Shown here: piece by piece, positions 7,615 through 50,564 of the stretch
How positions within the stretch are numbered: position 1 is the first letter of the stretch
Layout of the letters: the number at the start of each line of letters is the position of its first letter
Assembly (NCBI GenBank): GCA_003971905.1
Contig: RSEE01000082.1
Location: 62,001 to 126,000 of the forward strand
Direction: 5' to 3'
DNA length: 64,000 bases
Origin: Moniliella sp. 'wahieum'
Taxonomy: Eukaryota
Translations under genes and position numbers: made by a program
Notes under the pieces: model-generated
Told to the model about the DNA's origin: nothing
The model's database searches: none
The model's input: only the letters and a program-made list of their open reading frames with translations

Positions 7615-8261
7615 AACTACCGCGTGATGGGGCCTGGAGCAATCGGAGGATCAGGAATGGAGGTAGACCACACGCGGGGCGACATGGGAAACGCAGGAGG
7701 CGCAGAGCGCGTACGGAGGGTGGTGCATGAAAGTACCGCGACGCCTTTGGAACGCCGGGAGAAGGAGCTGCTTCGGCTGCTGGAACAACCAGAATGCGAC
7801 AAGAACGCCAAGTACCAAGGACGCACTCAAGAGCTGTTTTTCCGCGGGCAAGATGGTGCGCACTGGAAGGATTTGACTACTGACTCTCAATGCAACTGGT
7901 TTCTCGCTCGGATGTCTCCCACATACATCCGTGTCCACGCGTGCTACTCGGGTATGCTGAAGGAGGAGTGGAATAGAGGATGTGGTCTGAGGGAGGTACA
8001 GGAGGCTATGAGAAGGGTAGGGCCTTAATAGACGAGGGTACCGCGGAGCTGAGGAAGCTTCCGGGCGGATAAGAGAGGGGTGATGACTATCACGCAGGAT
8101 GGCGTGATTGGGGCATCGCCCCAACAGGGTATGGGAACGGATGGCGGGCACAGAGGGTCCTGATATCCTGGCGATCCCCCTGGTTCCTTAACATTGGTGG
8201 CACTATCAAGCAACATACGCAAGATGAACGGGTCGGGTTAGGCGTAGCGTTTCCCTTTCCC
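7615..8261 (+). mobile_element. Fragment of CRE/Cnl1-like retroelement endonuclease region fused to the 'J' repeat (copy 1)
   Basis: Near-identical to 20872-21340. Encodes NYRVMG...LERREKELLRLLE...DKNAKY, resembling the K..KY motif of restriction-like endonucleases. Confidence 0.6.
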
Positions 8262-9130
8262 TGTCACGGGGCGGGGTCCCGAGGTGGGACCCCCCCTGTA
8301 GTTTAGGGGTATAAACCCTTGGACAGATCAATCGGCGGCTCGTACGTTAGGTCCTGCTCCAGATCCTGGTTGAACCGAGCGGGTGTAGAGGCTAGGGAGA
8401 GACTCTCTAGTTGGGTGGCTGCCTGCGTGCAAAGGCCGCAGTCCAGACCCTCCGAGGTAGGAGCCGCGTACGTAGGTCGTTAGACCAGCTGAAGGGGTCC
8501 AGGAGCTCCGGAATTACTCTGTTCCTCGCAGCTTTACCACACTCGGTACGCTGTAGCCGGCGGGAACAGACAGAGTCCTAAAGAAGAGCAAGCGCTACTA
8601 CTGACTGATAGTAACCGCGCGACTTGCAGAGCGCTCGACGTAAGTCGTAAATTCGTAAGCGTAAGGGTGGTAGAAGGCGGAAGGGCGAGAGAGGAACTGG
8701 TAGTCGGGGAGACCAACGGTAATAGACAGGATGGTCGACAAGGTCCAAGCTAGCAAGCCTTAGACAGCTGTTATATACACCAGCAGAAGGAACCAGGCCT
8801 CAAGCTTCAAGTGCCTCATGGCAGGTATAGACAGAATGCGGGGCACTTCCCAGAAAGGTAAAGACTAACGCACAGGCCTTGCTCCCCAAGGCGCTGACGC
8901 TGCGCGCAGTCGGGCGCAGCAGGAAGGGTTCTGACAAGACTGGGCGCAATGGGCACAAAGCATCGTACCGATAAACCCATGCGGCCATGGCGGGCCGCGG
9001 ACGATATCCGCAGCAAGGATAAGGTGTCGACTGGCTCTCTCTCGCTAGTCTAACCGAACTGACGCATGTGGGCTGAGATGTCTACGACATGGGGCTCAGC
9101 GCCCGGAGATACCCCGAGCGCCCCGTAACA
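8262..9130. mobile_element. Solo LTR (869 bp)
   Basis: Termini TGTCACGGGGCG...CGCCCCGTAACA with flanks TTCCC/GTCCC (5-bp TSD, one mismatch). The paralogous empty site TTTCCCT-GTCCC-AGCCTTAAG is at ~16000. TATA-like sequence at ~8772. Confidence 0.85.
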
Positions 9131-10006
9131 GTCCCAGCCTTAAGCTCTGTCAATGATATGATGCAGTGTATAGAGATAAAGTTTAAAACTGGCAGGAGGG
9201 ACTCAAGCTTCACGCACGGATCTCCTCAGCCGTATAGAAAAGACTCGATCTTGGACATCGCCCAAATCCTTCCATTCTCGTCAATCCCCCGTCTACCCTC
9301 TCGCCTATCCTGTGACCCTGCCCGTTTTCAAGCCAATTGATCCAGTACAGGCAGCCTCTTGTTAGTGTCCGACTTCCCCTCCAGCAATCCGTCAGTCCAG
9401 TCGCGCGAGCCCTCCTCTGGCCGCGTCGATTTCCAATCTCCGTTAAGCCAATGTTTGTCCCCTCTGCCTCTTCCCGTCCTAATCTCGGAGGCTTCAGACA
9501 CGTTCTACGGCCCAAGCCGGTGGGTGACGTGGCAACAGGTATACGGTATTCACTTTGAAGGGGTTTAGATCCGCGTCGGTCGGAATAAATGCAACAGGAG
9601 TTATGTAGTCTATAAAGCTAACGCTTAGGTGAAGCTTGAAGAGGCGTGGATAACATATAGTAGGTGATGAGGGAGCGACCGTACCAATACGCTTTGCTGA
9701 GGTTTTGCGCTTCTGCGGCTATAGGTGGTGCGTTCCGTGGGCGGAGCTGATGGGATGCGTTGATGTTAATCGCCTTCAGGCTCTAGCGCACACAAGAGCA
9801 TGATATGAGCGGAGAGCGAGGGAGGGAGCACTTGATGACCTGCGAGTCGGAACGGAGGTGGGACGACGACCCCTGATAGTATAAATGCAAGCTCAACTCA
9901 CAATGACTGTGATTCACTATACCACCCCCACCCCCACCCCACCAACAACAACAATAACACTGAGCACTAACAGCATCAACACGAGTACAACAAAAGGCTA
10001 GACATC

Positions 10007-12961
10007 ATGTCGAATCCTCGATTGGGCGAGCTCAACGAAGCGGATGAGGAACAGACCCACCCACATTCCAATGACTCGGGCCTTCCCTCCACGTCCGATG
10101 CCATCGAATCTCTTCGGCCCCTCACAATTGATAGCATAACATCAACAAACCACGCGACGTACAAGAACACTACCACGTTTTCGTTGACAACCACAGCCGA
10201 GGACGACAACGACAATTGGATGGAAACAGAGTCGCTCTTGGAAAACGCCCTTTATCCCCTCTTCCCACTACAGAGCGCACACGATGGGCCTCATGGGATG
10301 CGAGGCGCGACAAACACAGAAAACGTGGGATCAGACCAGCCCGGTGACAGCGAGAAGAATAATGGGAGGATGATGATTCGGACGCGGAAAAGGGCGTGGA
10401 CTTGGCCGATCCGTGCGTGCGCGCGATTGTGCCAAATGTGGACGACCCCAACATGCCATACAACACCATTCGTACCTGGCTGCTTTCACTGGTGCTGGCT
10501 TGCGGTCTTACCAGCGCCCTCTATGCACTGAACACACGGGGAGATTTTACCAACCCAAAGGTTTTCGGGTCTTATACGAGTGCAGTTTTGGTGCAGCCGT
10601 TTACCTACTGTGTGGGTTTCGTCATGTCGAAAATCCCGTACCCATCGCATTGGCCCCTAGCTTGGTTCATTAACCCAGGTCCATTTAATCTCAAGGAACA
10701 TACGTACGTCTCAACCTCCCCCCGACGCTGATATTTGCAGTGTAAGAGAGTTCCCTCTGACAGGTGTGATTGACCCTATCGTAGAATCTGCACCATCGTC
10801 GCTGCTGTCGCCACGGGCCCTAACCTAACCCTGCAGTATTTGGTCGGGATGACATTTTTCAGCGGTGGAGGCTCAAAAAGTGAAGATACGTTCCCACCCG
10901 GCTTTCTTCTTCTCATTTACCTCTCGACCCCATTTATTGGATTTGCCATGGCAGGTCTTGCCACGCGCCTCCTCATTTGGCCTGGTGATCTCCTGTACCC
11001 TCAGGAGCTTCAGACCGGTGCGATGTTGACGGCCTTGCGGTGTACGTACGGCGCAGCAATTGGTCCCGTCGTAGCGTTTTCTGGATTGCGGGGACATTCG
11101 TGTTTGTCTGGCACTGGATCCCGCTATTCTTCTATCGACCTCTGGGAAAGTTCGAGTGGCCGACGTGGATTGCTCCGTCAAGCTTCGTGGTGAATCTATT
11201 GTTTGACGGAAAGGGTGGCATGGGCTGGTCTTTTTGGTGCCTCGACTGGACGTTGGTAACGTTAGCGTTAGGCTCACCCTTGATCGTACCGTGGCGCGCG
11301 CTGGTCAACGTATTTTGTGGCTTCGTCCTTGCCATGTGGGTCATTGCCCTCCGATATTCTTCACCAACCGGAGCTTAACTGCCCTCATTCCCTATGGCAG
11401 TATCGACGTATATTGGAACCCGCCGCTGAACACCACCTACATGCATATCAACCCCTTGCCCCAAGGCATTTATCTAGATCCCCCTCAATTTGATTCGCCC
11501 GACACACCCCAGGGACATTTTTCTGCCACAATCGTCATGACTTGGGCGTTTTCCTATGCCGCATGTACCGCCTTGCTCGTGCACACCCCGCTTTTCCATG
11601 GCGGCGACCTACGCCGCTGGTGGAAAGTGTCCAATGTGGCTGATTCGCCTGACCCCCACACCCGCCAACTTGCCCGCTACCCGCCTGTTCCCACCTGGTG
11701 GTACCTGTGCTTGCTTCTGGTTGCCTTTGTCTTTGCCATCCCCATGGTGCACGTGTACCAACGTCGGTGCCGGTGTGGGCGATTGTGCTTGCCCTGGCGC
11801 TCGCTGCAATTTTCATTGTGCCAGTGGGCATTGTGGTGGTCGGAGTCGGTGGAACTGAAGTGTGTGGAGCACTTGGCGACGTTGATTGTGCTAGTGTTTC
11901 CTTGCCTGGGCACACGACCGTTCTTCCGCTCTTTCAGATATTATTCCCGGGGACCCTCCAACAAGCGATGCTCTACTGTGGCTGCTCCAAACTGGCAGTC
12001 TACTTTAAGATCCCACCACGATTTACTTTCTATGTAATTGAGGGCTCTCAGTTGATATGCTCGCTGTTGCAGTGTGGACTCTGGGTGTGGTGGAGTCACG
12101 GCAATGATCTGGTTACGTATACCGACAACCAGGCGTCGCTACGGGTTGACGGTTTGTACGATCCTATATTGGACTGGCGTCGGGTTTCACAGAACGGCTT
12201 TTTGCACCAATACAAATGGACTCTGTACTTTTTCCTTATTGGTGCGGTCTTGCCACTGCTTCTGTACCTTGCCGCATGCGTTCTGCCCCACTGGTTGAAT
12301 CGCTCTGCTCATCTCCGCTCCATCCATTGCCCGCTCTTCTTTGGAGGTATATCGCAATTGGCACTCTGTTCAGCGGTCTGCTGGACCTCGTGGTTTTTCT
12401 GGGGAGCAGTCTCCCACCTACTCTTCTCCCCTCGCCGGCATTTGAATTACTGGATTGTGTATGTGTACTTATCGCTCTATATATCAATTCTTTCCGGGAC
12501 GAATGAAGCCTTTCTCCTCTCTCTCTACTAACTCAATCTCCGGACTGGTTGTCATGATTACAGGATGAATTACGTTCTCTCTGCTGCCGCTGCTGGGAAG
12601 TTCGCTTTGTGCAGCCATCATCGCGGCCATGGAGTATGGTACAGATGGCACTGACACCCGTTTTACCCGCTTCTTCCATCACTTGAACAGACTTGGGCCC
12701 CTGAATGACTACGGCGATACCGCGGAAAAAGTTATCGTCTGGAACGCCACGCTTTTTCCCAACGGGAACGCGCTTCGCCGCGTTCTAGTTGTCCCCTTGC
12801 AAATAGAGCTGGAGCCCGTCGGCAGATCGCAGCGTCAACGACGGAATCCCTTTCCCCCTGCCTTTTTTTGTATCTGCCCATCCAATCGCAATGGCATCAG
12901 CATTGTCCTCCCATCTGTCTCTCTGTGTGCGTTCTCTCTCTTTATTGGGCATCCAGGGTGA
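10007..12961 (+). CDS. OPT-family oligopeptide transporter (Isp4-like), copy 1; introns 10704-10784 and 12459-12563
   Basis: Motifs VRAIVPNVDDP...NTIRTW, NPGPFNLKEHT, GGMG...LDW, SPLIVPW, DPHTRQLARYPPVPTWWY, YFKIPPR, MNYVLSAA. The 3' end is uncertain and frameshifts are present. Confidence 0.88.
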
Positions 12962-15900
12962 CGAGTCACCCACACCGGATGTGGGTATGACCCTGTTCTA
13001 CATCTTCCTTGGCCCCTTTTGTGTCTTTCCCCTCATCACGCGTGGTTTACCGTGTGATAGCTTCTCTTTTCTCTGGTATAAGATAAGGCACCATCCATGC
13101 AGCCTGAATGAATACCATTGGCATCCAAAGCAACCCCCTTCCTACAGGTTGAGCCCACAACCGCCACGCAAAAAGGTTGCCACACCCAAAACCAAACCGG
13201 GGCAGCAACACCAGCCGCCCCACCCTACCCACCCATTTTTCACAATTTTCCAAGATGCCCCCCGCGCGTGCTCGCCGTCCGGCCACAGCCGAGGGCAACC
13301 CCGACTCCGATAGGAAGTTGCGAAGTTGCCCCCCCTGGCCGCGTGCCTACACTGATACCAGTCCCGCTCCGCGTGCAGTCGATGGCCTCTTGGCAGACCC
13401 GGACGACTCGGACGACGATTCCATGATGCCGTTCCAAGCCTGCGACATCCCCCAGCTCGTGCCGCGCTACGTGCAGAACCCCATTGACAGCGCCGCCGCG
13501 GACGAGCGTCTGCAGCAGCTCGCGGACAACGCCACCCCCTTCTCGTTCATGGATTGGCTAAACAACATGGATTCCCGCGTCGCCGGGATTCACCCGTACG
13601 CCACCACCGCCTTCCTCGGCCGCATCACAGCGCTCAACGCCACTGCTCCTCAACACTCCGCCCAGTCGGGCGCCGCGCGCCCTGCCGGTGCTGCCGGCCA
13701 GGCGCACGAGGCCGCCGTGACGGAGGTTGACACTTGACGAATAGGACGCGGACGCGTCGAGCTCCCTCGGGACTCGACGCACTGTGCTCCACTCTCCCGC
13801 TGTGCTCGACAGCGGCGCACACCCATCTTTGTTCAACCGCGCTGACCTGTTTGCGGACCTGGAATCAGTCAGCGGACACGAACTGGCGGACGGACGCCAT
13901 CTCCCGGTCACATGTCACAGCCCGGGGTACTGTCGAATGCATGATCTCTGACACCCGCTCCCCGTCCACACAGCGACGCGTGACACTGAGAGGTGCGTTG
14001 CTCGTCCCGGCCCTCCGTCGCCCCCTTCTGGGCGTGCAGCATAGGCAGAGTTCTGGCGTAGGAGTTAGCTTGGCGGCAGGAGGGAACGGGGTGTAGCCGG
14101 CTTGGTGGGGGTAGTTAACAATCAGACCTAGGAAGTGGACTTGCTGGCTGGGATGGCTTACGCGAAGCTTATGTAACAGACGGGACACACTCTGTGCCGG
14201 ATTTTAATACTGAGTCCACTGCTGGCTCTGCCGCGTCCCGGCCACGACTTCACGCGCTGGCCCCGCAACTGCTACGCCATGACCCCGGTGGCCGACGTGC
14301 CGGACCAAGGCACGCCGCATTGACAATGGTGCCGAGGCCCCACTCCGCTCCGCGCCCCCCCCCCCCACCACCACCTGACGGCCACACCTTTTGCGGCCGA
14401 CACTGGGGCTGATCTCCTTCCCCGCTTGACCCTGGCGGAGGCCTACTTACAGGAGCCCTCGTCAGCACACCTGATGGCTATTCTAGCGGTGCCCACGGAA
14501 GTACTCCGCCACCACAACAGGGACACCGGCCTCCTCTGGACGTATCCCAACCATGCCTCGGTGCTCCCTCGGCATAGCCTTTCGCAACCAGCCGCACTCA
14601 TCCTACCCATACAGGCCGCGTGGTACCGCAGGGCCACACCCTCACCGACACGACGGACACTAACCGCATTGTGGTGGACCTGGACGAAATCGATGTTGCT
14701 TTGATTGTAACATTCAGACCCGACGTTGGGGCAGGCATATCCGGGTTTGACCCAGCCCCTCCTATGTGCGGCCTGGAATACGACCGCCTTCGTTGACTTT
14801 TTCACCGCCCTCACCAAGAGTATTTACCAACGGCACCGCCCTAGGCCATGAGCTCCTGCTGGCCTCCCGCATTACCCCATGGAAGAAGGCATCGAGGGTA
14901 TTCGCCCCATCGCCCTGTGGGAGCTGATCTACCGCCTGTGCGCCAACGGCATCGCTCGAGCGCCCCCCACAGTTGGCCTCTCCCCACTCAGCGGAGTGGG
15001 GACGCAAAACGGGGTGGAGCCTATCGTACGGATGGTCGAGCGCATGACGGCCACAGGCGGGGAGAACGACGCGGAACTGGGCGACTTCAGCCACGTCGCC
15101 ATGCTCGACTTTACCAACGCCTTCAACACTGCGCGCCGTCGCACACTCGCTAAGGCGCTCCATGCCTACACCCCGACCTCATCACCTTGGGCCGATGGAT
15201 CTATGGTTCCCCCACCCAGCTTTGGGTTGTGTCGGGCGGAAATGAGACCAGCGTCCTGTCGGCAGAGGGCGTACGGCAGGGCGACCCCCTCGCCCCTTTT
15301 TCTTCTTCATCGCAGTGCGGCCCACGCTGGAGAAACTGGAAAAGGATCTGCCGCCGGGGCACCTGGACGAAATTACGATTTTCGGTCCAGGGCCAGGCAT
15401 TACCGGCCTAGCCACGGAGATTTTGGAAGACGACGCGTCAGGCCTCAAGCTCAACCTGCGCAAGTGTGTCGAGCGGGACCGGGACCAGATTCGGGAGGAT
15501 GGTCTGCAGGTTCTGGGCACTTGTGGGGAGGGGTAGACTGTCGTCGATGGTGGCTCCGGGCCCAATTGGCCAGTCTGAGGGAGAACATGCCTAAGTTTGA
15601 TGGCATCACCCGCCAGGGACGCCTCTTACTATGGCGGCTCAGTACTCAGACCAAGCTGCGCCACCTGCTCCGCACCATGCAGATGGAAGGAGAGCTAGAC
15701 GACGTGCTGGCCGAGATTGATGCCTTCATCTGTACGGAGTTCAGACGGATCCGGGGCGACGAGGATCCCCAAGGTGCCAAGGACGACCACTTCGACATGC
15801 TCATGAGCCTGCCTCTCCGGATGGGAGGATGTGGCAGCCCGCTTAACTCGTATATTGCGCCCCACGCTTGTGCCGCGGCCAACGACGTTCTTATTACCAC

Positions 15901-15990
15901 TCATGTTGACGGATCGGGACCGCAAACGGCGACGGCAAATGCATTTAGGAAGCAACGCCAGCGCTGCCGGGCGATGAACTGGTCGGTTTA
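12960..15990 (+). mobile_element. Degenerate CRE-clade (Cnl1/MoTeR-like) non-LTR retrotransposon
   Basis: The 5' part (also present inverted at 44690-45110) has an ORF starting MPPARARRP at ~13255, followed by the RT region. Boundaries are approximate. Confidence 0.65.
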
Positions 15991-15997
15991 TGCGTAG
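14426..15997 (+). pseudogene. Non-LTR reverse transcriptase, inactive
   Basis: Motifs IRPIALWELIYRL, LDFTNAFN, GVRQGDPLAP, GLKLNLRKC, SLPLRMGGCG. The catalytic YLDD reads HLDE, with internal stops and deletions. Confidence 0.85.
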
Positions 15998-16084
15998 CGT
16001 TTCCCTGTCCCAGCCTTAAGCTCTGTCATATGTCAATGGTATGGATGCAGTATAGAGATTTACCCGCGCTGGGATTATGCATGA

Positions 16085-16280
16085 TTATGATTGATGGATC
16101 AATATATCATTGATCCACTACTTCGTTTGGAGTAAGAGTTTGTCAAAACGGACCACAGGGCGTGGGCGCAGTCGCGGGAACGGATCCACATATATAGGAG
16201 CAAGCTATTACAGGAAGAATGAGGCAGCAGATCAGAGTAAATCAATCATCCACCAATCCAATGGGGGGTGGTTGTTGAGT
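16085..16280 (+). repeat. Dispersed repeat block Z
   Basis: Inverted homolog at ~44260-44450. Confidence 0.85.
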
Positions 16281-16665
16281 AGATTGAACGTTGAACGTTG
16301 AGTGTTGAGTACTGAGTGTTGAGGTCTTGAGGATTCAGGTTCTAGTTCCAAGCTTCTAACAGCGCGGGGCATACTGAGATATATATATGAACCCCACTGC
16401 CAAGGTCAGCTGTGGAGAAGGGGCCATCATGCATGACAAGGGGCCATCCGGTCATATGCACTTGCCCGGCCCTTCTCAGATCTCACCCCGGTGAGGCTGG
16501 GTGAAGCTCTGAATGTTCACATGCTCCACACAGTCCAAAGGAGAAGGTCTGACACATGTTCATGAGTCGTACGCTGCTATACGATTCCTGACGGCTTCAC
16601 GATTGCTTTTTGTAGGGTAAAAAGCTTCCTCTTAATACGTGGGGGCGTTTTTGTCGCTGCGCACA

Positions 16666-17201
16666 TGTAACCCTACCCCACACGGGATCCCGCACTAGGG
16701 CAGCCGGCGGGGTACCGTGGGAGAAAAGCTTCCTAGACACAGCCCCCTGCTGTAAGCGTCTGCCGCACTAACCCCGTGTGTGAGGCGCAACTGGTTACAC
16801 TCCTGTTTTCGCTCTGCCTCGACTCTTTTCTCGCTTGCAGCCGTCGGCTGAACCACTGCATACAGGATTCATCCCCCGCTCCCGGGTCACTAGCTTCACT
16901 GTCGCTCCCTGGTCCGCATTCTCCGAACTCTGATTGCAGCCCGCGTGCCACAGTTCCATACCACAGTCCTTAATAGCCTTCCTGGGGCCTCTGATGTGCG
17001 AATAAAGTATTGTTGGGCAAGCGCAGTAGTGCGCTACCCAATATATACGGTGCGCTGCGTATTCATATCAACTTGGAGACGCAACTTAGCGCCCGCTCAG
17101 CCTCGGTTGTCTCGATGGGCTGGGGCCAACGCAGGGCCCTCCTTACTCATGCATGACCACGCCACGCCGGAGGGACAGGACACTGGCACCGCGCGGTTGC
17201 A
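16666..17201. repeat. Dispersed repeat block X (possibly an old solo LTR)
   Basis: Inverted homolog at ~49383-49957. Ends are TGTAAC...GTTGCA, but no TSD is seen. Confidence 0.75.
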
Positions 17202-17551
17202 ACTGCCTAGAGTATGAGATGTGGATCTAGGAGCAGACATACTCTGAATCCAATCTCTGTCTCTTGGAAAAGCTAGATCGCCCCCAGCAGTGCTGACTCG
17301 GAACTATGTGAGCCCTTGTGGGCTAGCACACCCACATCTTTGTGGAGCATCCTGGCAATAAGGGTTAATGATCGGACGCTTGCATCCTGGAAACGCTTCT
17401 GCGCCTGAATGAATCAAGGCTCTTACTGTTTCTATTTAAAAGGAACACCTGTCGTCGCTACATCCACCCAACCACACCCCTCATCCCACCACACCACCAC
17501 CGTCTGTGTCTCTGCATCTCCTTCGCTCCACCGTTCGCCTACGCCTTTGTC

Positions 17552-18747
17552 ATGCGCTTCCTCCCTCTCTCTTCTTGGGCGCTTCTTCTGGCGTCCCTTC
17601 CGGCAGTGCTCGCCTCGCCGTTCCCTGCAAGCTATCCGCGGTCGGGCAACATCGTCGCCAAGGACAATGGGGCCAAGGAGCCGTGCCTCAGCGACTCGCA
17701 AACCAAGAGTCTCCAAATGGCCGTTTACCAGGCGGATGCCCAGGTATGTCTCTTTTCTCTTTACCAACAGAGTGCGGTGTACGATTGAGCTAACTATTGG
17801 GCTATCGCTTGGGGACATAGGTCGCACTCTTCCAATACGGGCTGGACAAGTTCGACGAAAAAGACTTTGAGGCTGCGGGCCTGACCTGTGACGACAAGGC
17901 GCAGCTTAAGTGGATGGTGCAAACCTCCAGCAACCACCGCGACCTGCTGGCCAAACAGCTCCAGGCCTCCAAGAAGGATGTCCCCAAGCCTTGCACCTAC
18001 AAGTGGCCATGCGAGGAACACCTCCCGGATTACTTTGTGTACACCCAGGGTATCATTCAGGATGCCGTTTCGGGTCTGCTGGGCGGCATCAGTGACGATG
18101 ATGCTCATCCGTATCCTTCCGTCATTTCGCAGATCGCTGCCGGTACACAGGCATGCTAGGCATTCTGAACCAATTCGTTGGTCATTTCCCCAACCCGTCG
18201 GTGATGCCTGCACTGCTAGCATCTCAGTTCCACTGGAGCCTTGCCATTGACAACATTCTCACGTGTCCTGCCGGGAACCCTGTTCCGTTTGACAAGACAT
18301 ACGCTCCTCTGACTGTCACGAACGTACCCACGTATGGCCCGAGGAAGCCATCCCTGAGTAGCCCGACCCTCAGTTCGTACACCCAGGCCAGGCGATCAAC
18401 TTCAAATGGGATCCCGACACCACCCGGGGCCCATTCAACCAGACAAGTTCCTGCTCCAACAAGACCCCACTCATGCTGTCTTTTTCACGGAAGATCAGCA
18501 GATCCAAACCCCCCTCACCAACGTGGGATCTGACTGCGCCACGACATTGCTTCCCTATGCCAACGACAATTCTGGATCAGGATCGGCGGGGCAGGGGAAA
18601 TGGGCTTCCCCGGAAAAGAAGACACCGCTCAGTGGTACCGTCTACATTCTGTTGATTGATGACTCTGACACCAACAACATGGGATCCCGCATGGAAAATG
18701 GTGCTGGCCTCTCATTGACACAACTGCGCCTTCCCGGCGCACCGTGA
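17552..18747 (+). CDS. Secreted ferritin-like (Rds1/Ferritin_2-type) protein; intron 17744-17820
   Basis: Signal peptide MRFLPLSSWALLLASLPAVLA. After splicing: LFQYGLDKFDEKDFEAAGL...HRDLL...PKPCTYKWP...AVSGLLG...ILTCPAGN, the Rds1-like pattern. Confidence 0.7.
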
Positions 18748-19039
18748 TCATGAAGCATCGAACATCACGTCATCCACTTTTGATATGCGGCGCCACCGCG
18801 AGTTCTCGTAACCATTCTTGTTTTGTTTTACCCTCTACTTCCAGACCCTGATACTTCTCACCATAGAGAAGCCCGCCGGTGACTCACCCTCTTACGATCG
18901 GCCACTTTCTTGGATCACGCCTGTCTCCTTCTCTTTTCCAGCCTCATTGTTTGCAGCATGACAACGCCACGTCCCGATGACGACCCCTGCGATGCAGTGA
19001 TTGAATTGTTTTCGCTCGAGTTTCGAAGTGCTACAGCAT

Positions 19040-20600: not shown

Positions 20601-20699
20601 CGTTCCCCCGTCGCCACCGTAGCCACCGTTCCCCCGGTCCACCGTTCCACGCTGGAGAAGTAAAATAATATACGCGGGCTGCGTCGCCGGTGGCTTACG

Positions 20700-39293: not shown

Positions 39294-39760
39294 GTGAGAT
39301 GGGGCTGTGGGTGAGAAGGTGGGAAGGTGTGGAGGTGCGGATGTGAGAAGGTGAGAAGGTAGCTAGCGTACGGTGGTACGTGTGCATCGGAGGCATCACG
39401 TGCATCACGCACCAGCCACCGACTGATTGGATTGAATATGAACTCGTCCGCCCGTCCAAGTGGTTCGGTGGTTAAGGAATTGTTCTGCCGCCTTGCTATA
39501 CGCTCTTCGGTCTGTGGCCCCAACTGAGTGACTTCCCACGCACCTCGCCAGCTAGATCCCCTCGTTCGCCGTCTTGTCCATTCGCTTCGCTATTCTACCC
39601 TGCCCCAGCACAGCACCTGTCTACATAAATCTACCTCAATGTACGTCAATGGCACCCCATTACATCACATCGCATCGCATGTATCGCATCGCATTGGCTT
39701 TCCCTGCCTTGGTGCCCACCTCGCACCCACACGACAGACGCAGACGCATCCCCACCGGGT

Positions 39761-42505
39761 TCACCTCACCTCAACCGCCCGCGTCGCACGCCTCGCCTCG
39801 TCACGTAAGAACGCCATGACCTGAGCGGAGGACCAAGCGTCAGGTCCAGCCGGGCGGACAAACCACTGACCTGCGCCCGGGACATCGACTTTGGTCAAGA
39901 AGCGCGGGGCCAAACGAACGAGCATGTCGAGCGCCGCCTCGGCGTCAGAGGGGGTAGCAGGGGAATGGGTACCAAGTGCCGTTTGGGCCGTAGCCAAAAC
40001 CTCGCGCGCAGGTTTACGTGTTCCGCTCCCTGTGCGTCCGAGCGCGCCCAGGCCAAGTGACGACGGCGCAAACAGCGCTGCGAGCGAGGCGGCGACACTA
40101 GGCAGACGCGATAAGATGGACGTTTCTCTAGGTCCGGAGTGGGATGCGGACGCGCTCGGACGCGCTTGTGCCGCAGCTTGTTTCGCTCGGATACGTTCGG
40201 CCAAACTCGCCCCGCGCGCAGCGGCGTTGGCTCGGGTCAACGCTGGGCCCGCAACGGAGGCGGAAGCCTTGGTTGGACTGGCGGGGCTGGTTGGATTGGT
40301 GGAGCTTGTGTGCGTGGCAGGGCTACTGGGGGGAAGATGGGCACGGGCACGGGCAAAGCGGGGAGGGGCAGGGATGTCTTGCAACGCCTTGGGCGGGTCG
40401 AGCATCAAGGAGGGCAATTGAGCTCTCGGCACGGGCGGAACGGAGGCTAAGTTGTATCCTGGTGGCCAGGCGTGGAGGACAGGGCCTGTGGTGGATACGG
40501 GGTCGGTTCCCATGACGGAAGGTAACAATACCGGGCGCTTTTCCGCGCGTTTCCCCGTCGAACGGGACCGGGGGACGCGGGCGAGAAGGGAGCTGAAGCG
40601 ACCAAGGTGGAGGTGGAGGAAGCGAGCGAGGGCGCCAACGTCGAATGGGTGTCCTGTGGCGCCTGGGCCGGTAACGTCGCTTCAAATTGTTGCATTGCCC
40701 TGCGCTTCAACCGAGCCGACACGGTCGCCCTGCGCGTCTCGACGCCCATTTGCCATTGCGCCGTAAGCGCCATCAAGTCTGTTGGTTTGGGTAGTGTCCT
40801 GCGCCCGAGGCCGACGGGGACGGGGAGGAAGATCGTTGCAACGGGTCCGGCACCGAAGGGCCGCTAACGGTACCTCCAACCCCAACGCCCAATCGTACGT
40901 GCCACAGGCAACTTGGTCCGTTCCAAAACGAATCCCATTCCGGCCAGCTCGTCCAGCTGGCCGGCAGGCGGGTCAGACAGAGGTGCATGGCCTGCCAGTC
41001 GAGGCGGGCTTGGCCATTGGTCCAGAGCCAGGCAAGTTGGGCCAGCTGTACTTTTCCCAGTGCACGCGGGCGGGAGGAACGAGTGGGACATTGTCGAACG
41101 AGGTGTTGCAGCATACTGTAGTGAACCGCACGATGCAATCGGACAACGGTACCTTTGGGACGCTCCACCCGCTCTACCGAGCCCGAGTGGGAAGCGGTAG
41201 CCAAACGCGACACGAGCGAGGTCTCCACCCCTCGTGGAGCTCCAACAAGGCCTCGTAGTGCGGCGGCAAGGCCAGTGCTGGACCAAACGTATGAATCGGT
41301 GGTGGAAGGGACGCATTTTGTCGCTGCAGCGCCTCGGGAGGGTCGGTGTGCTCTTGGAACGGATTAGCAGAGGCAGAGGTATCCCCACATTCTTTCCCGG
41401 TAAAGGAATGTAGAACGCCTTCTCCATAGGTTCTCGGTCCCTGTCCATACGGGCCTTTTTACGCGGCAGGCGCAGAGAAACGAGCACTCTTGCGGGGCGT
41501 GCAAACAGGCGCATTGGCCATGGCCAATTGCTCACGTACCTTGCGCGGGGTAATGATATCCTCGTCGTCCCACTCCTCCTCCTGCGGCGGGAGTAAGCCA
41601 TACGGAGCTCCGGCACCGGTTGGGGCTCCTCCGCCTCCGCGCGAGCTGCCCGCGCAATGGCCGCAGATGGAAGAAGGGCAGGATTCGGAGCGGGAGTAGG
41701 GATGGAGGTAGGAGTGGGGGACGCCTGCCGGCCAGTGGGACCGGGACGAGCGACGAAGAGCGGAGAGGTGGATGCGCTGGCCTGGCTCTTGCCACTCTCA
41801 GGGACGACGCGGACGCTTGCGCCTGCGCCGGGGGTGAATCCAAACACGGTACGGGAACGGGTGGAGGAGCCCGCGGAGCCGGGGGTACGGGCGGTAGCAG
41901 TAGCGGCAGTGGACGAGGGCGTGTCGAGTTCGGGGACAAACTCAGTTGCGTCCAGGTCAATGTCCGTATCCGATTCGTCTGCCTCGGACTCAGCGAGGCC
42001 GGGGAGGAGCATGGTGCGTGGCGTGGGGCGGCGGTGAGGGCGCGGCGGGGGGTCGTGGAGGCGGCGCTGCTGGCAGGCGAGCGGGCGTGGCGGGGAGAGA
42101 TGCGGAGGTAAAGCTTGCGTGTGTCCGGATCCTCGCGCACCGACACGGCGGCGGCGTGCCCAGGGGCTCCAGCAGCTCCAGGGGGCCCTCGTCGTGCGAC
42201 TGGGCATCGCGGTGGTCGCTGTCGGACGGGTGCGGAGAGCGGGAGGGGGAATGGGCGGGCGCGGGCGCGGGCGCGGGAGCGCAGCGGCGTGGTCGATGGC
42301 CGGGCGCTCGTCAGCTCGCGGGACGGCGGAGGCCAGCGTCGTCGCTGGGCTTGGGGGCGCGGGCGGAGGCGGGCGCGGGCAGAGTCAGAGCGGGGCGAGA
42401 GGCGGCAGAGAAGTACGCGCCCAGGTCGGCGTGCTCGCGGTGGGCGGGCATGCCGGGGACGTCGACGTCGGTGGTGGCACCAGCCCAAGCCGAAGCGGCG
42501 GCCAT
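39761..42505 (-). CDS. DNA replication licensing factor Cdt1-like
   Basis: The middle domain reads LPxHYEALLELHEG(V)ETSL...QLAQLAWLW. The C-terminal part has SLAERIRAKQ...SDAEAALDMLVRLAPRFL, resembling the Cdt1 MCM-binding winged helix. Start is uncertain (42013 or 42505). Confidence 0.6.
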
Positions 42506-42779
42506 CGACAGCAGAAACGAGCAGGCAAGCCCAGGCCACTACCGCCCCCGCCTGCCGCCTGTGCTGCACGCGGCCCCCGCACCCCCAGTGTGCTGCAGCG
42601 TAGATGCTCATCTCTCTGCAGCCCGAGTTCCGCGCGTTTCAGGTCCGCACACTGCCCCCCCGCTAGGGTTACGCCTGCGCACGCGCCCATTTAATTTCCA
42701 CCGCCTTATCGCCATCTGTCTAACCTTACGCCTTTGTTCGCAACCAACACGATCATAGCATTCTCCCAATTGCATTCTT

Positions 42780-43200
42780 TCCGCCAGCCCGGTGTGCCAG
42801 CCCCACCACGACCGAATGTGGACGAGGCGATGAAGAACGGGCACGGCAGAGGTGCCGTGGTCGAACAAAATATACGTTTTGCTTTCCTCGGTGCCAGCAA
42901 CAATTACGTGCTTCGAGCTCACTGATAGACAGATTCAGATTCAATGGCCTCCATCAGCCCCTCTGACCCTGTGCCTCTCCTCGCTCAACAAGTACTGACA
43001 AGTGTGGTGAAATATACTATGTCTTCTTTCTCGCTTGAGCACACTTTTTTGGCTTTTGCCCAGCACCCAATGCAAGCTTGGTTCTCATGGCTGCATGAGG
43101 TTGTGCGGCAGGGCGATCTACAGGCCCGTACACTCCGGCGTCCCGGAACCTTAGGGGAAACCTACATCACAACGAGATCCCGCTGTAGAGAGGAGGGAGA
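42780..43200 (+). mobile_element. Possible degenerate LINE 3' (zf-RVT-like) fragment
   Basis: Across frames: C...KCG...SLEH.F..CP...QAW, with stops. Confidence 0.3.
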
Positions 43201-43432
43201 CGGAACTGCCAGCGCCATCATGCATGCAGCTGATCACGCATCACGCATCGCGCTGTTCTATCCGACTCTCCCCTATGTTCTGCTCCTAGCGGGCTCCTCT
43301 TTGGAATAGATCCATCACCTCCTCTCTCTCTCTCCTTCTCTCCGTAGGCTTTTGTCCTCGCTTGAACGGTAAACAGTGGTTTCGATCCGGTCTCTCGCAT
43401 CGTTCCACGCCTCGGTTCCGGTTCGCCCTCTT

Positions 43433-44230
43433 TGTCACGGCGGACGTTGCCAGGGGCCCGCCCCGGAGGGTTTAAGGGGTACAATCCCTTGGAGGTCCTA
43501 AGGACGACTCACGGTAGTTACGCGCTTGAGCTGGTTGGTGGGTCCCCTGCGGAGCTAGGACAAGGAGAGGCCTCTCGGCGTATAGCAGAGGCGGCTGCAA
43601 GTGTGGCAAGGCTGCTTAACACCGCTTGGGCGGCAGTAGCGTGTCTGAAGCCTTTCGGGCTCAGGAGAAGGGAAGGCAGCGGAGGACCCACGCTGCTGAA
43701 CTGAGGCTGGGCTGAGACTGGGAGCGGCGTGGCGAAGGACAGTATCACACGGGGCTTAACTGGGCTGGACCGAGGCGCGGCACAAGGAGGGCTCACGCGG
43801 GCGGGGGGAAACTAGGAGTACTGAGGACTGAAGGCGAGGGCTGGCGATCTACGCCGGGAGTAGAAAGGCGACTAAGAGCGGGAGGAGTTGCCTGTACTGA
43901 ATCGATTGGCGAGGAGTGGGCAGGAGGTGAAGAGAATCAACAGGCGGGAAAGGACGAAGATGGGGGGTGACGAAGGGACAAGATGGACCGTGGGGGAAAG
44001 CCACGAGCCATTGCTAACAGGCAGGGGGACTAAAAGACCGCGCGCAGGCCAGCAGGCCTCGTGTACATTCCTTTCTCACTGCTTGCTCTGTCCTCTTCGC
44101 CACCCCCTCTCCTTCCCCCTTCCCCTTCTTCTCGCTCACCTCGTTACTTGATTACTACTCGCTGATCGTCTGTGGTTTAGAGACTAGGTGTCTCCAGGTC
44201 AGAGCCTTCACGCGTCGCTACACTAGCTTT
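43433..44230. mobile_element. LTR-like segment, left border of island B
   Basis: Starts TGTCACGG and shares GGGGTAYAAWCCCTTGGA with the 8262 LTR. The right end is undefined. Confidence 0.55.
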
Positions 44231-44259
44231 CACATCTCCGAATCACCCTTAACGTACTC

Positions 44260-45110
44260 AACCACCACACCCGTTGGATTGGTGGATGATTGATTTACTC
44301 TGATCTACTGCCTCATTCCTACTGTAGCTTGCTCCTATATGTGGATCCGCTCCCGCGGCTGCGCCCACGCCCTGCGGTCCGCTTTAACAAACTCTGACTC
44401 CGAACGAAATAGTGGATCAATAATGATATATTGATCCACCATCAATCATCTCACTCTTGACCACGTCCATTTCATTGACAGAGCTTAAGGCTGGGACAGG
44501 GGGAACGCTACGTCTAAACCTAACCGTTCATCTTGCGGGGGTTACTTGGAAGCGCCACCAAGATTAAGGAACCAGGGGGATCGCCAGGATATCAGGACCC
44601 TCCGGCTCACGCCATCCGGTCCCGTACCCTAGGAAGCGCGTGTGGACACGGATGAACGTGGTTGACATCCGAGCGAGAAACCATTTCCACTGCGCAACTT
44701 CCATATCGGACTCGGGGTTGCCCTCGGCTGTGGCCGGACGGCGAGCACGCGCGGGGGGCATCTTGGAAAATTGGGAAAAAAATGGGTGGGTGGGGTGGGG
44801 CGGCTGGGGTTGCTGACCCGAGGTGAGATGGGGTGTGGGCGGGGCAGCTGGTGCTGCTGACCCGGTTTGGTTTTGGTGTGGCAAAAACCTTTTAGCTTGG
44901 CGGTTGTGGGCTCAACCTGTAGGAAGGGAATTGCTTTGGATGCCGATGGTATTCATTCAGGCTGCATGGATGGTGCCTTATCTTATACCAGAGAAAGGAG
45001 AAGCTATCACACGGTAAACCACGCGTGATGAGGGGAAAGAGACACAAGAGGGGCCAAGGAAGATGTAGAACAGGGTCATACCCACATCCAGTGTGTGCGT
45101 GACCCGTCAC
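44260..45110 (-). repeat. Inverted copy of retroelement 5' part + J repeat + block Z
   Basis: Matches 12960-13322, then 21148-21345, then 16085-16280. Confidence 0.88.
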
Positions 45111-48028
45111 CCTCGATGCCCAAGAAAGAGAGAAGAACGCACAGAGAGACAGATGGGAGGACAATTCTGATGCCATCGCGATTGGATGGGCAGATAGAAA
45201 AAAAAAGGCAGAGGGGGAAAGGAATCCGTCGTTGACGCTGCGATCAGCCGACGGGCTCCAGCTCTATTTGCAAGGAGACAACTAGAACGCGGCGCGAAGC
45301 GCGTTCCCATTGGGGAAAAACGTGTTGTTCCAGACCAGAACTTTTTCCATGGTATCGCCGTAGTCGTTCTGGGGCCCAAGTTTTCCCAGGTGATGGAGGA
45401 AGCGGGTAAAGCGGGAGTAAGTGCCATCTGTACCATACGCCATGCCCGCGAGAAGGCTGCACAAAGCGAAGTTCCCACGGAAGCGGCGGCAGAGAGAATG
45501 TAATTCATCCTGTCGACAACGAATCCAGAGATTTTGTTTAGAGAAGAGAGTTATAGCCACAGTCATCCCAGGAACAATACAAAGGGAAGAGAGAATAGTG
45601 GACGTACGCAATCCAATAATTCAACTGCCGACGACGAGAGAACAGTAGGTGAGTGACAGCCCCCAGAAAAACCAGGAGGTCCAGCAAATCGTTGCAAAAA
45701 ATGCCAATTGCGATACACCACAAAGAAGAGCGGCCAATGGATCGAGCGGAGGTGAGCAGCGTGATTCAAGTGGGGCGAAACCCGTCCGGCAAGGTGCACG
45801 AGCAGTGGCGCGACTGCGCCAATAAGGAAAAAGTACAGAGTCCACTGGTATTGACGTAGGAAGCCGTTCTTGTGAAGCCCGACGCCAGTCCAATATTTGG
45901 GATCGTACAAACCTGTAAACCGCTGGTCGGCCTCGGTGGAGATCGTCAGCGATCGGAACTCCACCCCACCCAGATTCCACTTTGCAACACTGAGCAGGCC
46001 ATTTGGGTTCCCACGAGTACAAAGAAGGTCGTTCGTGGTGGGATCTTAAAATAGACTGCCAGTTTGGAGCAGCCACAGTAGAGCATGGTTTGGATGGTCC
46101 CTGCGCAGCACATCTGAAAGAGCGGCAGGATGGTCGTGTGCCCAGGCAGAGAAGCACTAGCAATCAACGTCGCCAAGTGCTCCACACACTTCAGCTCCAC
46201 CGACGTCCGACCCACCACAATGCCCACTGGCACAATGAAGATTGCAGCGAGCGCCAGGGCAAGCACAATCGCCCACACCGGCACCGACGTTTGGTACACG
46301 TGCACCATGGGGATGGCAAAGACAAAGGCAACCAGTAGCAAACACAGGTACCACCAGGTGGGAAAAGCCGGGTAGCGGGCAAGTTGGCGGGTGTGGGGGT
46401 CAGGCGAATCAGCCACATTGGACACTTTCCACCAGCGGCGTAGGTCGCCGCCATGGAAAAGCGGGGTGTGCACGAGCAAGGCGGTACATGCGGCATAGGA
46501 AAACGCCCAAGTCATGACGATTGTGGCGGAAAAGTATCCCTGGGGTGGGTCGGGTGAATCAAATTGGGGAGGATCTAGATACATGTCTTGGGGCAAGGAG
46601 TTGTAAACATGTTGGTGGTGTTCAGCGGTGGGTGCCAATACACGTTGCCAAGGGCATAGGGAAGGCAGGCCGCTAGGTTCCGGTTGGTGAAAAGATCGGG
46701 AGGGCAATGACCCACATGGCAACGACGAAGCCACAAAATACGTTGACCAGCGCGCCCCACGGGACGATCAAGGGTGAACTCAACGCTGTGATCACTGAAG
46801 TCCAGTCTAGGCACCAAAATGACCAGCCCATACCACCCGTCCCATCAAACAATAGATTGACCGCAAAGTTGGACGGAGCAATCCAAGTCGGCCACTCAAA
46901 TTTCTCAGAGGTGGATAGAGGAATAATGGGATCCAGTTCCACACGAAGAAGACCGTTGCCACAATCCAGAAAACGCTTCGACGGTTCCAGTTGCCACGCC
47001 GAACCCCGTGTAAGGCCGTCAACATTGCACTCGTCTGAAGCTGCTGAGGATAAAGCAGCTCACCAGGCCAAATGAGAAGACGTGTGGCAAGACCGGCCAA
47101 GGCAAATCCAAAGAATGGGGTCGAGAGATAGATAAGAAAGAGGAATCCGGATGGGAATGGCTATCTTCTTTTGTGCCACCATGAGTCGCTGCAGCCATTC
47201 CGGCCAAGTATTGCAAGGTCAGGTTGGGGCCCATCGCGACCGCAGCGACGATGGTGCAGATCCTGTACGCGAACGTGTCAGCCAGCGCTCTCCTTTCCTG
47301 TAACGTCAACGTCTCGGAAGATGGGACGCACGTATGTTCCTTGAGGTTGAAAGGGCCCGGGTTGAGGAACCAAGCCAGGGGCCAGTGGGATGGGTACGGT
47401 ATTTTCGATAGCGCAAAACCCAAACCGTAGGTGAATGGCTGTACTAACACCGCACTTGTAGACACAAAGAGTTGTGGGTTGATCCAGGATCCTAGGGTCT
47501 CCATAGCAACGAGGGCGGGTGGTGAGGCCGAGGGCCAGGATAATGGAAAGCATCCAGGTGCGCATCGTGTTTAATGGCATATGGGTCGTCTTCATTAGGC
47601 ACGACGGCACGCACACGCGCATCAGCCAAGTCCAGAACCTTCTCCTCGTCTGTGTCGTTATCATCTCCATTGTTGGCGCCTTCACCCCACTGGTCCGATC
47701 CCCGGTTGTCGTTCGTCGTCGGTCGTGTCCAAGAGTGTTCAACATGTGGACTCAGCAGTGGGTCGTTGTGATACAGCACAGTTCCATGAGCAACGCTGTT
47801 TCTACCCATTTCCGTTGTCTTCCTCGACTGTGGTCGTGGAAGGAAACGGGGTAGTGAAACGGGTAGTCTTCTTGGACGTCGCTTTATTGTTGATGTTATG
47901 CTATCAGTTGTTGGAGGCAGAAGAGAGTCGATGGCATCCAGCGTGGACGGAAGGCCCGAGTCATTGGAAAGTGGGCAGGTCCGTTCCTCATCCGCTTCGT
48001 TGGGCCCGCTCGAGCGTGAATTTGACAT
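45107..48028 (-). CDS. OPT-family oligopeptide transporter, copy 3; introns 47263-47331 and 45510-45607
   Basis: Same motifs and intron positions as copies 1 and 2. The 3' end is uncertain. Confidence 0.88.
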
Positions 48029-48039
48029 GATGTCTAGCC

Positions 48040-49960
48040 TTTTGTTTTTTTGTGGTGTTGGTGTTAGTGATCGGTGTGTTGTTGTGGTGGGTGGTGGTGG
48101 TAGTGAATCACAGTCATTGTGAGTTGAGCTTGCATTTATACTATCAACAGAGAGGTCGTCATTCCGTCTCAGTTCTCAGCTCCGACCCGCAGGTTTTATC
48201 AAGTGCACCCTTCTCATGTTATGTGTGCTCGAGACTCGAGGCGATTAACATCCCAACTGCGCCACAGGGCCGCAGCACCTAGCCGCAGCAGCGCAAAAAC
48301 CCCTAAAGCATATTGGTACGGTCGCTCCCTCTCCTCAGGCCTGAGGCCTGGGGCCTCCCCTATTATTATCCACGCCTCTCTCCACATAAGGGTTAGCTTT
48401 GTCGACTACATAACTCCCCTGTTGCATTGGTTCCGACCAACGTGGATTTGAACTCCTCCTCAAAGTGAATACCGTGTCGCGACGCGGGACGCCACCCTTG
48501 AAGGTTCTGACCTGGTGATACTTTGTCCTCAATCGCACTTTTGTCAAATTAGTAGGCCAATCGCATCGCCAACTCGTCAAGACGTTCTGATTTCGGCCGT
48601 TCGTCACCGTATCGGGCAAGCGGTTGTCTGCAATGGCGAATGATGCATGATATATATGATTGTTAGCATGTGCGATTGTAAAAAGGGGTGTTGCCCTTTC
48701 CATCCAGGTTACCCTACGTGGTCCGACGCCCTCTTGACTGATTCCTTTAGCGAATATCCGCCGAGAATGCAGTGACCATATTTTTAAAGAAAGGATGGTC
48801 TTCCGGAGTCAGGGGTCAGATCTCAGAACTCGGAGAATTCAATATATTCAATATATTCAATCACCTTCAAGCTTCAAGCTCCAAGCTTCATCGTCGATCA
48901 TCAAGCTTCAAGCTTCAAGCTTCAAACTGCACCCTTCATCGATCCCACCCACAGGACCTACCCAATACTACCGAATCTGTTCATCGACCTACTAGTGCGT
49001 AACGTGATATTATCCGCATCTCACCTAAGCTAACAGTTAGGATGGACATCAGCGTCGTCCGCGCGTTAATGGATCCGACGATACGTGTGAATGCACATGC
49101 CCCACACTCATCAATATCAACATCAGTTCGTTGACAGAGTGGGTGAAAGATGCCAGTGATCTGAGTTCTGAGTGTAGCGACGCAAGTATGCCAGAACGCA
49201 AGCGAGACACAACAGTCTCTACGATGCAGACAGCGAATACAGCGGAGAGAGAGAGAGGAGAGTATCGAGTATAAGCGGGAGCGGGATACAGGTGGAGGTA
49301 AGGCAAATACAGGCGTTGCTACAAGAAGAAAACAAAAGCTTCTGAGTAGGCAAGCTAACTGAAGAAGACCTAGCCAGCCACGTGGCAACCAGTGTCCTGT
49401 CCCTCCGGCGTGGCGTGGTAATGCATGAGTACTGAGTACTGAGTAAGGAGGGGCCTGTGTTGAACGTTGACCGGTGACCGGCGACCCCAGCCCATCGAGT
49501 TAACCTGGGGCTGAGCAGGCGCCAACTTGCGTCTCAAGGTTATATGAATACGCAGCGCCCCGGATATATATTGGGTGGTGCACATGGTTAATGCGGATAC
49601 TTTATTCGCACATTTATTCGCACACACATCAGGCATCAGGCCTCAGGCCTCAAGAAGGCTATTAGGGACTGTGGTATGGGACTGTGCCGCGCGGGCTGCA
49701 ATCAGGGTTCGGAGAATGCGGGCCAGGGAGCGACAGTGACCCGCGAGCGGGGGATGAATCGATGAATCCCGGTGTGCAATGGTCCAGCCGACGGCTGCAA
49801 GCGAGAAAAGAGTCGAGGAAGAGCGAAAACAGGAGCGTTTCCAGCTGCGCCCCGCACACGTACGGCAGAGGGTTCGCACGGGGGCTGTGTCCGGAAGCTT
49901 TCCTCCTACGGTGTCACCGACTGCCCTAGTGCGGGATCCCATGCGGGTAGGGTTACATGG
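48040..49960 (-). repeat. Inverted copies of OPT promoter, block Y and block X
   Basis: 48040-48475 matches 9543-10005 and 21630-22095. 48790-49200 matches block Y. 49383-49957 matches block X. Confidence 0.88.
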
Positions 49961-50289
49961 CACTCTTCCACCACTTCCCCACCCTACACTGCTTTGATTG
50001 GTTCCAAGCCGAGGTAAAATGGTGGAGGCAAAAAAAGCCTTTGTTCTGCTACTCTCCTCCCTTCATGCCAGAAGGTGGTGGAGTAACTAGTAACTAGTCA
50101 TTGAGTACTAAGTAATTGTGCATTCCTATACATTGTAGTCATATCATTACAGAGCTTTTAAGACTGGGACAAAGAAACGCTGCGCCAAAGACCGGGGAAA
50201 CCGCTTCCGCATCGACCTCATCGATCATCGGGCGTGTGTTGTTATTGTTGGCACCAAGCCTGATTAGGAAACCATAGGAACTGTTAAGG

Positions 50290-50564
50290 GTTCCGCGCGG
50301 TTACGTTCGACCTGAAACGGTTCTGATCCAAGCTAAGGCCCGCCTGCTCTGCATTGCCCAGTAGTCGAGGTCGGCTGGCCTAAACAAGGTCGCCATGTGT
50401 CCGGTATCTTTGCGACGACTGTCACCCCGTCGTCACTTACTTTACCTTTTTCTATTGCGCCTGCGGCAACCAAACCCTCTTTTGACACATCTTCCTTTCT
50501 ACACCCCTATAGGACCTCCAAGGGATTGTACCCCTTAATCCCCCCGGGGCCCGCCCGTGTGACA
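50290..50564. mobile_element. LTR-like segment, right border of island B
   Basis: Ends GTGTGACA. 50510-50538 is the exact reverse complement of 43472-43500. Confidence 0.55.

Follow-up and report, generated by a model that had tools for sequence, protein, structure and literature searches.

The 64-kb stretch of Moniliella sp. 'wahieum' DNA analyzed here (contig RSEE01000082.1, positions 62,001 to 126,000 of the forward strand; below, the window) carries three copies of a gene for a peptide transporter of the OPT family, two of which, OPT1 and OPT2, lie in one repeat-rich block (island A), while the third, OPT3, lies in inverted orientation in another (island B). All three copies are pseudogenes, and none retains an intact frame for the full transporter. 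Island B is framed by terminal inverted repeats. Neither of these two properties was part of a sequence-only reading of the same DNA, which had described a "spreading" cassette that "amplifies a peptide transporter"; neither expression is supported, the copies being three in number and each of them a pseudogene. The region looks like ordinary genome debris rather than a spreading transporter cassette. With a probability of roughly 0.55, we interpret it as an old duplicated, now dead OPT locus that combines a tandem DNA duplication with a slice of the array inside a non-autonomous transposon whose ends resemble those of Ginger elements.

The three OPT copies

The three copies claimed by the sequence-only reading were recovered by self-comparison of the window as units of ca. 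3.8 kb that are 79-85% identical to one another (Table 1). Self-BLAST aligned 9537-12813 with 21625-24871 on the same strand (80% identity) and, in inverted orientation, 9543-13326 with 48475-44689 (79%) and 21631-24871 with 48475-45257 (85%), with E = 0 in each case. Matches to the Pfam OPT family (PF03169) were obtained with five open reading frame (ORF) pieces in OPT1 and with three each in OPT2 and OPT3, their E values ranging from 9e-05 down to 1e-32. Homology sets in at one common point in all copies (9537, 21625 and 48478), ca. 470 bp upstream of the ATG, and the sequence further upstream differs from copy to copy. OPT1 and OPT3 also have a common 3′ end (13333 and 44683), and the 3′ extension of OPT2 fades by about position 25000.

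Intron 1 has the form GTRCGT...CTGAC...AG in all three copies. Intron 2, which is likewise of the GT..AG type and has an ACTAAC-type branch site, is also kept in all three. Since both introns and the promoter are retained in three copies out of three, copying took place at the DNA level, in agreement with the earlier proposal that retroposition was not involved. A candidate intron at 23467-23525 was rejected: OPT1 reads in frame straight through this region, and OPT2 and OPT3 have a 1-nt deletion there.

The nearest relative found, a 577-aa ORF (P0002) in which exon 2 is one intact open frame, is 56-58% identical to the copies; no intact paralogue closer than this was found. A search for loci related to P0002 returned 27 pattern matches and no true relative. 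The nearest named OPT matches were from Sporobolomyces (40% identity) and Mortierella (29%). As revealed by tblastn, exon 2 is split over several frames in each of the three copies. A frameshift-aware alignment of exon 2 to P0002 counted seven frameshift events in OPT1 (288/539 identical residues), three in OPT2 (at about 23513, 24079 and 24099; 280/546 identical) and eight in OPT3 (293/544 identical). Exon 1 is open in OPT2 and frameshifted in OPT1 and OPT3. In OPT2, the frame also stays open for 217 codons of exon 2. For the most part, an indel occurs in a single copy. Several measure 2 nt or fall outside homopolymers, and a 1-nt deletion is common to OPT2 (23513-23519) and OPT3 (46609). The 2-nt and non-homopolymer indels, together with the shared one, indicate that these are real lesions and not read errors. 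It also follows from the frameshift common to OPT2 and OPT3 that the relocated copy was probably dead beforehand, i.e., that the island B copy probably descends from an already broken gene, unless gene conversion spread the lesion.

In the alignment of the three copies, 2387 of 3113 columns are identical. When codons were aligned to P0002, the synonymous divergence (dS) was 0.34-0.58 and the ratio of nonsynonymous to synonymous divergence (dN/dS) was ca. 0.32 for every pair, so that selection must have acted on the copies during much of their divergence. The divergence is patchy. At guide residues 251-350, the synonymous difference is 0.06-0.20, versus 0.24-0.61 in most other 50-codon windows; the lowest value outside this region is 0.14 (OPT2 and OPT3, residues 51-100). 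The closest pair shifts along the unit, being OPT1 and OPT2 in the promoter, OPT2 and OPT3 in most of the gene body, and OPT1 and OPT3 both at residues 251-350 and across the 3′ extension. Such a mosaic points to gene conversion among the copies, the partners possibly including paralogues outside the window, and it implies that the flanking blocks are not simply of the same age as the gene. Repeat-induced point mutation (RIP) was considered as a source of divergence and rejected: of 373 changes private to OPT1, 101 are C>T or G>A and 98 are T>C or A>G, and the other copies are balanced as well.

Repeat order and terminal inverted repeats

Island A reads, from left to right, a-b-c(J), OPT1, 3′ extension, 2.6 kb of unique sequence, J-Z, X, a ferritin-like ORF, Y, 1.1 kb of further sequence, a-b-c(J) and OPT2, where the letters denote short repeat blocks. 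On the minus strand, island B reads J′, X, Y, OPT3, 3′ extension and a′-b-J-Z. Self-BLAST and alignments of the short blocks thus bear out the block order given earlier, and the repeat order supports the head-to-tail unit that had been proposed for island A. Island B opens with a copy of J and closes with J-Z, and is thus slightly longer than a single period of the head-to-tail arrangement in island A. A slice of this length accounts for the apparent circular permutation of the two islands without a circle.

Island B is a 7132-bp unit with inverted repeats at its ends. Self-BLAST aligned 43451-43500 with 50559-50510 at 90% identity (E = 1.4e-11), and a 29-nt core is identical on both sides; this core has two occurrences in the window, whereas 100 shuffled sequences contained none. 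The repeats are roughly 55-70 bp long, and both start with TGTCAC, at 43433 on one side and at 50564 on the other, the latter position being also the end coordinate of the region singled out by the sequence-only reading. An nhmmer profile of the repeat matched the two island B ends with E = 8.8e-15 and 4.6e-17. As can be seen from the base composition, the repeats face inward exactly where the composition changes: the GC content is ca. 0.60-0.65 in the window and 0.51-0.57 in the two islands. They enclose OPT3 and the spacer, 79-85% identical to OPT1 and OPT2 of island A, as expected of a Pack-type element. A scan of metagenomes with a 27-nt repeat core retrieved no loci, and a query of public sequencing runs for 41501-51500 returned none. 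One repeat-like match within the window, at 25152-25165, was not used (E = 1.1).

The same terminus recurs in island A. Block R1 contains an 869-bp non-autonomous element, the left end of which fits the profile of the island B repeats (nhmmer E = 6.5e-11) exactly at the insertion breakpoint. The insertion point is defined by four empty paralogous sites, namely R2, the J copies of islands A and B, and J′. The 5-bp flanks of the element, which form a candidate target duplication, are TTCCC (8257-8261) and GTCCC (9131-9135), a match at four positions of five, and its two ends have only ca. 12-22 nt in common. Another copy, the 12-nt terminus TGTCACGGGGCG, is located at 19724, precisely where the homology of islands A and B in Y ends. 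A right end to go with this terminus, flanked by a matching target duplication, was looked for without success. The segment that it opens had been labeled an LTR (long terminal repeat), a label that is not supported, there being no second copy in the window. The same transposon family has struck island A at least two more times.

All of these termini fit the pattern TGTNR, with TGTCA at 43433, 8262, 19724 and (reverse complement) 50564, and TGTTA at 9130 (reverse complement). The interiors of the elements are unrelated past the first 55-70 bp, the long termini diverging abruptly at the same point. Such unrelated interiors are common among non-autonomous members of families with terminal inverted repeats. 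Since the interiors are unrelated beyond the termini, a non-autonomous transposon family fits these elements better than LTRs do.

Coding content, minor blocks and flanking genes

The ORFs of the window were scanned for known protein families; the scan covered 300 of the 324 ORFs of at least 100 aa (the 24 unscanned ones lie at 60054-63831) and, within the islands, every one of the 201 ORFs of 45-99 aa. Among the scanned ORFs, no match was found to a transposase, integrase (rve), DDE, reverse transcriptase (RT) or recombinase family, nor to a Rep/helicase family, nor to a tyrosine-recombinase or other captain-type family, which agrees with the earlier remark that no transposase or recombinase is visible. 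The islands likewise offer no sign of a retroposed copy or of LTR-borne cargo: introns are retained, a direct LTR pair is lacking and no RT family was matched. The "RT" label given earlier to sequence downstream of OPT1 finds a single counterpart, a sub-threshold match to Pol_BBD (E = 0.0034, 18.1 bits versus a cut-off of 27) within the 2.6-kb unique filler, and an Atlas lead at 0.94 points in the same direction; judged from these similarities, the filler is probably a remnant of a Ty1/copia-type gag-pol region. For a 381-aa ORF at 14852-15994, neither a Pfam family nor a homologue was found, and its best match in the PDB (E = 0.032) is not meaningful; an ORF at 13153-13734 gave no usable Atlas match. 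ORFs of block a, which had been labeled "RLE", match neither a family nor a solved structure. Taken as a whole, the earlier observation holds for the repeat architecture, which is real, and is not borne out for the labels RT, RLE and LTR, apart from the weak Pol_BBD signal.

Table 1. Features of the window, in order of position (window numbering; "." marks features given without a strand)
Feature	Coordinates	Strand	Remarks
Ribonucleotide reductase (RNR) small chain	5658-7005	-	Pfam
Block R1, upstream of OPT1	7612-9271	+	a 7612-7956, b 8127-8260, c/c2 9131-9271
869-bp non-autonomous element	8262-9130	.	within R1; ends TGTCAC...GTAACA
OPT1 unit	9537-13333	+	ca. 470 bp promoter, pseudogene, intron 1 10704-10784, 0.5-kb 3′ extension
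Unique 2.6-kb filler	13334-15972	+	holds Pol_BBD-like ORF 13731-14093
J and Z, island A	15973-16281	+	J, copy of b/c, 15973-16059; Z 16059-16281
Block X	16664-17186	+	74-77% identical to 49959-49389
Partial ferritin-like ORF	17821-18156	+	Pfam Ferritin_2, E = 6.6e-06, profile positions 18-77 of 138 only
Block Y	19083-19723	+	19083-19417 and 19686-19723
Segment beginning with element terminus	19724-20868	+	motif scan and breakpoint alignment
Block R2 (a-b-c-c2), upstream of OPT2	20869-21468	+	uninterrupted; empty site for the 869-bp element
OPT2 unit	21625-25000	+	least damaged; ATG 22099, introns 22785-22862 and 24522-24612, stop near 24844
TPT	26583-27824	-	Pfam
CDT1_C	39764-40681	-	Pfam
Island B, 7132-bp unit	43433-50564	.	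left repeat 43433-43502, right repeat 50508-50564
Block W	43620-43705	-	weakly similar to 9438-9522, just upstream of the OPT1 unit; marginal
a′-b-J-Z, downstream of OPT3	44255-44692	-	matches 21138-21363, 7888-8255 and 15973-16281
OPT3 unit	44683-48478	-	promoter, both introns (intron 1 47331-47263), 3′ extension
Y′, upstream of OPT3	48788-49169	-	alignment
X′, upstream of OPT3	49389-49959	-	alignment
J′, upstream of OPT3	50126-50194	-	alignment
DUF3405	51257-52523	-	Pfam

The repeat blocks around the OPT units are conserved to different degrees. R1 and R2 are 87-90% identical, R1 being interrupted by the 869-bp element and by an extra piece of ca. 170 bp (7953-8128) that is missing from R2 and from the island B copy. 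The 7-bp direct repeat GGGTATG flanks this piece, which is either a small insertion or the counterpart of a microhomology-mediated deletion in the other lineage. The J/Z segment 15973-16281 is 78-86% identical to 44532-44255, and its J part additionally matches 21297-21377 and 8223-8261/9131-9177. A supposed similarity of 16281-16664 to 44255-43500 was rejected (score 20, versus a shuffle mean of 20.4), and the block called Z in the earlier reading is better placed at 16059-16281. In Y, 19083-19417 is 85% identical to 49169-48855 and 19686-19723 is 87% identical to 48826-48788; the island A copy carries a 7-bp tandem repeat, (TTGAAGC)x7, at 19354-19403, and a related short array is present at 48865-48941 in island B. 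The distance between X and Y is 1.9 kb in island A (17186-19083) versus 220 bp in island B. J′ is a weak copy of ca. 70 bp (local score 53, shuffle maximum 32). The similarity of block W is marginal (local score 48, shuffle maximum 37); if accepted, it would lengthen the period copied into island B.

The ferritin-like ORF sits between X and Y in island A only. Given the partial coverage of the profile, it may be a remnant as well. None of nine neighbouring ORFs matched Ferritin_2, and one of them gave a sub-threshold match to SAC9_GBDL_2nd (E = 0.015).

The neighbour genes named earlier (RNR small chain, TPT, CDT1_C and DUF3405) were all recognized by Pfam. A tandem array at 36920-37360, with a unit of ca. 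75/126 bp in 2-4 copies that match at 94-96%, is intergenic, between an Oxidored_FMN gene and the CDT1-side genes. At 578-682, on the minus strand, Rfam identified a tRNA (47.4 bits over 105 nt), which is probably intron-containing and was not reported by ARAGORN. No tRNA or Rfam family was found within the islands.

Origin of the locus

The course of events that we favour would have started with head-to-tail duplication, in the RNR2-TPT interval, of an OPT gene complete with its two introns and including ca. 470 bp of promoter and a 0.5-kb 3′ stretch, as the block order suggests; J-Z-X-Y would be the spacer between the duplicated copies. The slice J′-X-Y-OPT-3′ extension-a′bJ-Z would then have ended up within a non-autonomous cut-and-paste transposon. 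The structure of such a composite is what island B displays, and the mechanism is proposed on that basis. The cargo transposon would now lie inverted between the CDT1-side genes and DUF3405, and an autonomous partner in another part of the genome would have to supply the transposase. All OPT copies have gathered private frameshifts, with patches homogenised by gene conversion. The three collinear units, with both introns and one 5′ breakpoint, and the inverted repeats at the very edges of island B speak for this scenario.

Several observations weigh against it. The sequences filling the space upstream of the three units are unlike one another and of different length (265, 157 and 313 bp). The 5-bp flanks of island B, CTCTT and TTATT, match at three positions of five, i.e., there is no clean target duplication. 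The cargo-bearing element is seen once only, and any movement of it after capture is putative. The earlier suggestion of a cargo-carrying non-autonomous element gains support in island B, framed as it is by TGTCA-type inverted repeats, but not in island A, at whose outer ends no bounding inverted or direct repeats above the level of shuffled sequences were found. The flanking blocks are 74-96% identical, and thus closer than the synonymous sites of the gene (pS 0.27-0.40), a mismatch that a single simple duplication does not predict and for which one has to appeal to conversion or to unseen paralogues. With the transposase missing from the window, superfamily assignment has to be drawn from the termini, and TGT...ACA ends with a 5-bp duplication fit solo LTRs too.

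These termini resemble those of Ginger elements. In the available part of their description (Ginger1 and Ginger2/Tdd; Bao, Kapitonov and Jurka 2010, PMC2836005), they have TGTNR termini that mimic LTR ends, inverted repeats of 40-270 bp and a target duplication of 4 bp (5 bp in TDD-4 and TDD-5), and a Ginger2 vestige is noted in the basidiomycete yeast Malassezia globosa. The termini of islands A and B are TGTNR as well, and repeats of roughly 55-70 bp fall within the size range given there; the candidate 5-bp duplication of the 869-bp element would have the length given for TDD-4 and TDD-5. Unlike Ginger elements, the window has no integrase-like transposase, although a non-autonomous element can do without one of its own, and the targets differ from the CCGG or RTATAY sites given in that part of the source for Ginger1 and Ginger2. 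Since there is no transposase to compare, we do not file the elements in any superfamily. That a Ginger-like, integrase-type family, active now or recently in this basidiomycete, relocates multi-kb host segments (a gene with its promoter and introns and the spacer from a tandem array) is a tentative and rather doubtful extension of our interpretation; no fungal Ginger-type element with captured genes was found in a non-exhaustive search of the literature.

Other transposons offer parallels for the capture itself. According to the available part of one report (PMC6839031), the termini of GingerRoot elements resemble those of LTRs and the duplication measures 6 bp; gene fragments, 79-98% identical to the parental genes, are present in 22 of 77 elements. 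In Dothideomycetes, a hAT element captured histone H3 and every captured copy was inactivated, as stated in the available part of a second report (PMC6710886). As in Pack-MULEs, GingerRoot and the hAT-H3 element, the inverted repeats of island B frame host genic DNA copied as DNA, with no transposase inside, and, as in transposons with terminal inverted repeats (TIRs) that transduplicate genes, the captured OPT3 is non-functional and away from the parental locus. The cargo differs from captured gene fragments in being a whole gene with promoter and spacer, ca. 5.7 kb in length and more than one array period. Unlike the transduplicating TIR transposons, a single such element is seen here, the island B flanks match at three of five positions, and a RIP signature is absent. 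The head-to-tail copies, the mosaic identity and a dN/dS of ca. 0.32 followed by private frameshifts are also what is seen in tandem or dispersed gene families under gene conversion and subsequent pseudogenisation; in contrast to plain gene-family duplicates, the dispersed OPT3 copy is framed by transposon ends. Starships are giant elements of Pezizomycotina, of tens to hundreds of kb, which carry host genes as cargo and have a tyrosine-recombinase captain. The idea of host-gene cargo is alike, but the unit described here is 7.1 kb long and has TIR-type ends, and no captain family was matched among the scanned ORFs.

The competitor that we take most seriously, while giving it clearly less credence than the transposon scenario, is plain segmental duplication, in which ectopic recombination or replication-based repair copied a slice of the array into, or next to, an older resident transposon in the CDT1-DUF3405 interval. 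It differs from the preferred interpretation only in whether the composite ever moved. Both the lack of a clean target duplication around island B and the single occurrence of such a unit are readily accommodated by it; the islands are nests of one transposon family, which makes landing in or near one plausible, and the patchwork of identities demonstrates ectopic exchange between them. It is harder to reconcile with inward-facing repeats lying exactly at both edges of a foreign, lower-GC block, or with the 755 bp and ca. 550 bp of otherwise unique DNA between the repeats and the cassette, an arrangement expected of transposon subterminal DNA.

An improbable alternative is that the TGT...ACA termini are LTR ends, the 869-bp insert being a solo LTR and island B being framed by two truncated, opposite LTRs. 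LTR retrotransposons have as their signature TG...CA ends and a 5-bp target duplication, the 869-bp element has two ends with little sequence in common, and a copia-like remnant is nearby. Against this, LTRs of one family should match over their full length, whereas the three long termini are alike over the first 55-70 bp only, and the islands yielded neither a direct LTR pair nor an RT or an integrase. Rolling-circle (Helitron) transposition or a circular DNA intermediate, in which a reinserting circle or concatemer gives head-to-tail and permuted copies, would suit the head-to-tail order and the copy longer than one period, but ordinary tandem duplication yields the same order, and the circular intermediate suggested by the sequence-only reading is not pointed to by anything in the window, the tandem order being sufficient. 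Moreover, the unit boundaries, ...GGTAT|ACGGTATTC on the 5′ side and ...GGAAGTTGCG on the 3′ side, have neither 5′-TC nor CTRR-3′, and no Rep/helicase family was matched, so we regard this origin as very unlikely. Least credible of all is an assembly or haplotype artefact in which the copies are mis-joined alleles: nothing was found in its favour, the copies differ by 15-21% with many private indels and have unlike flanks, and the 64 kb of the window contain no N.

Adaptive amplification of a peptide transporter is not shown, given that every copy in the window is broken. Should the transposon interpretation be wrong, the locus would be an ordinary record of the birth, exchange and death of a gene family. 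If it is true, a fungal, integrase-type case would be added to the small number of transposons by which host genes are relocated as DNA, and the locus would provide a clean internal example, with one filled site beside four empty paralogous sites.

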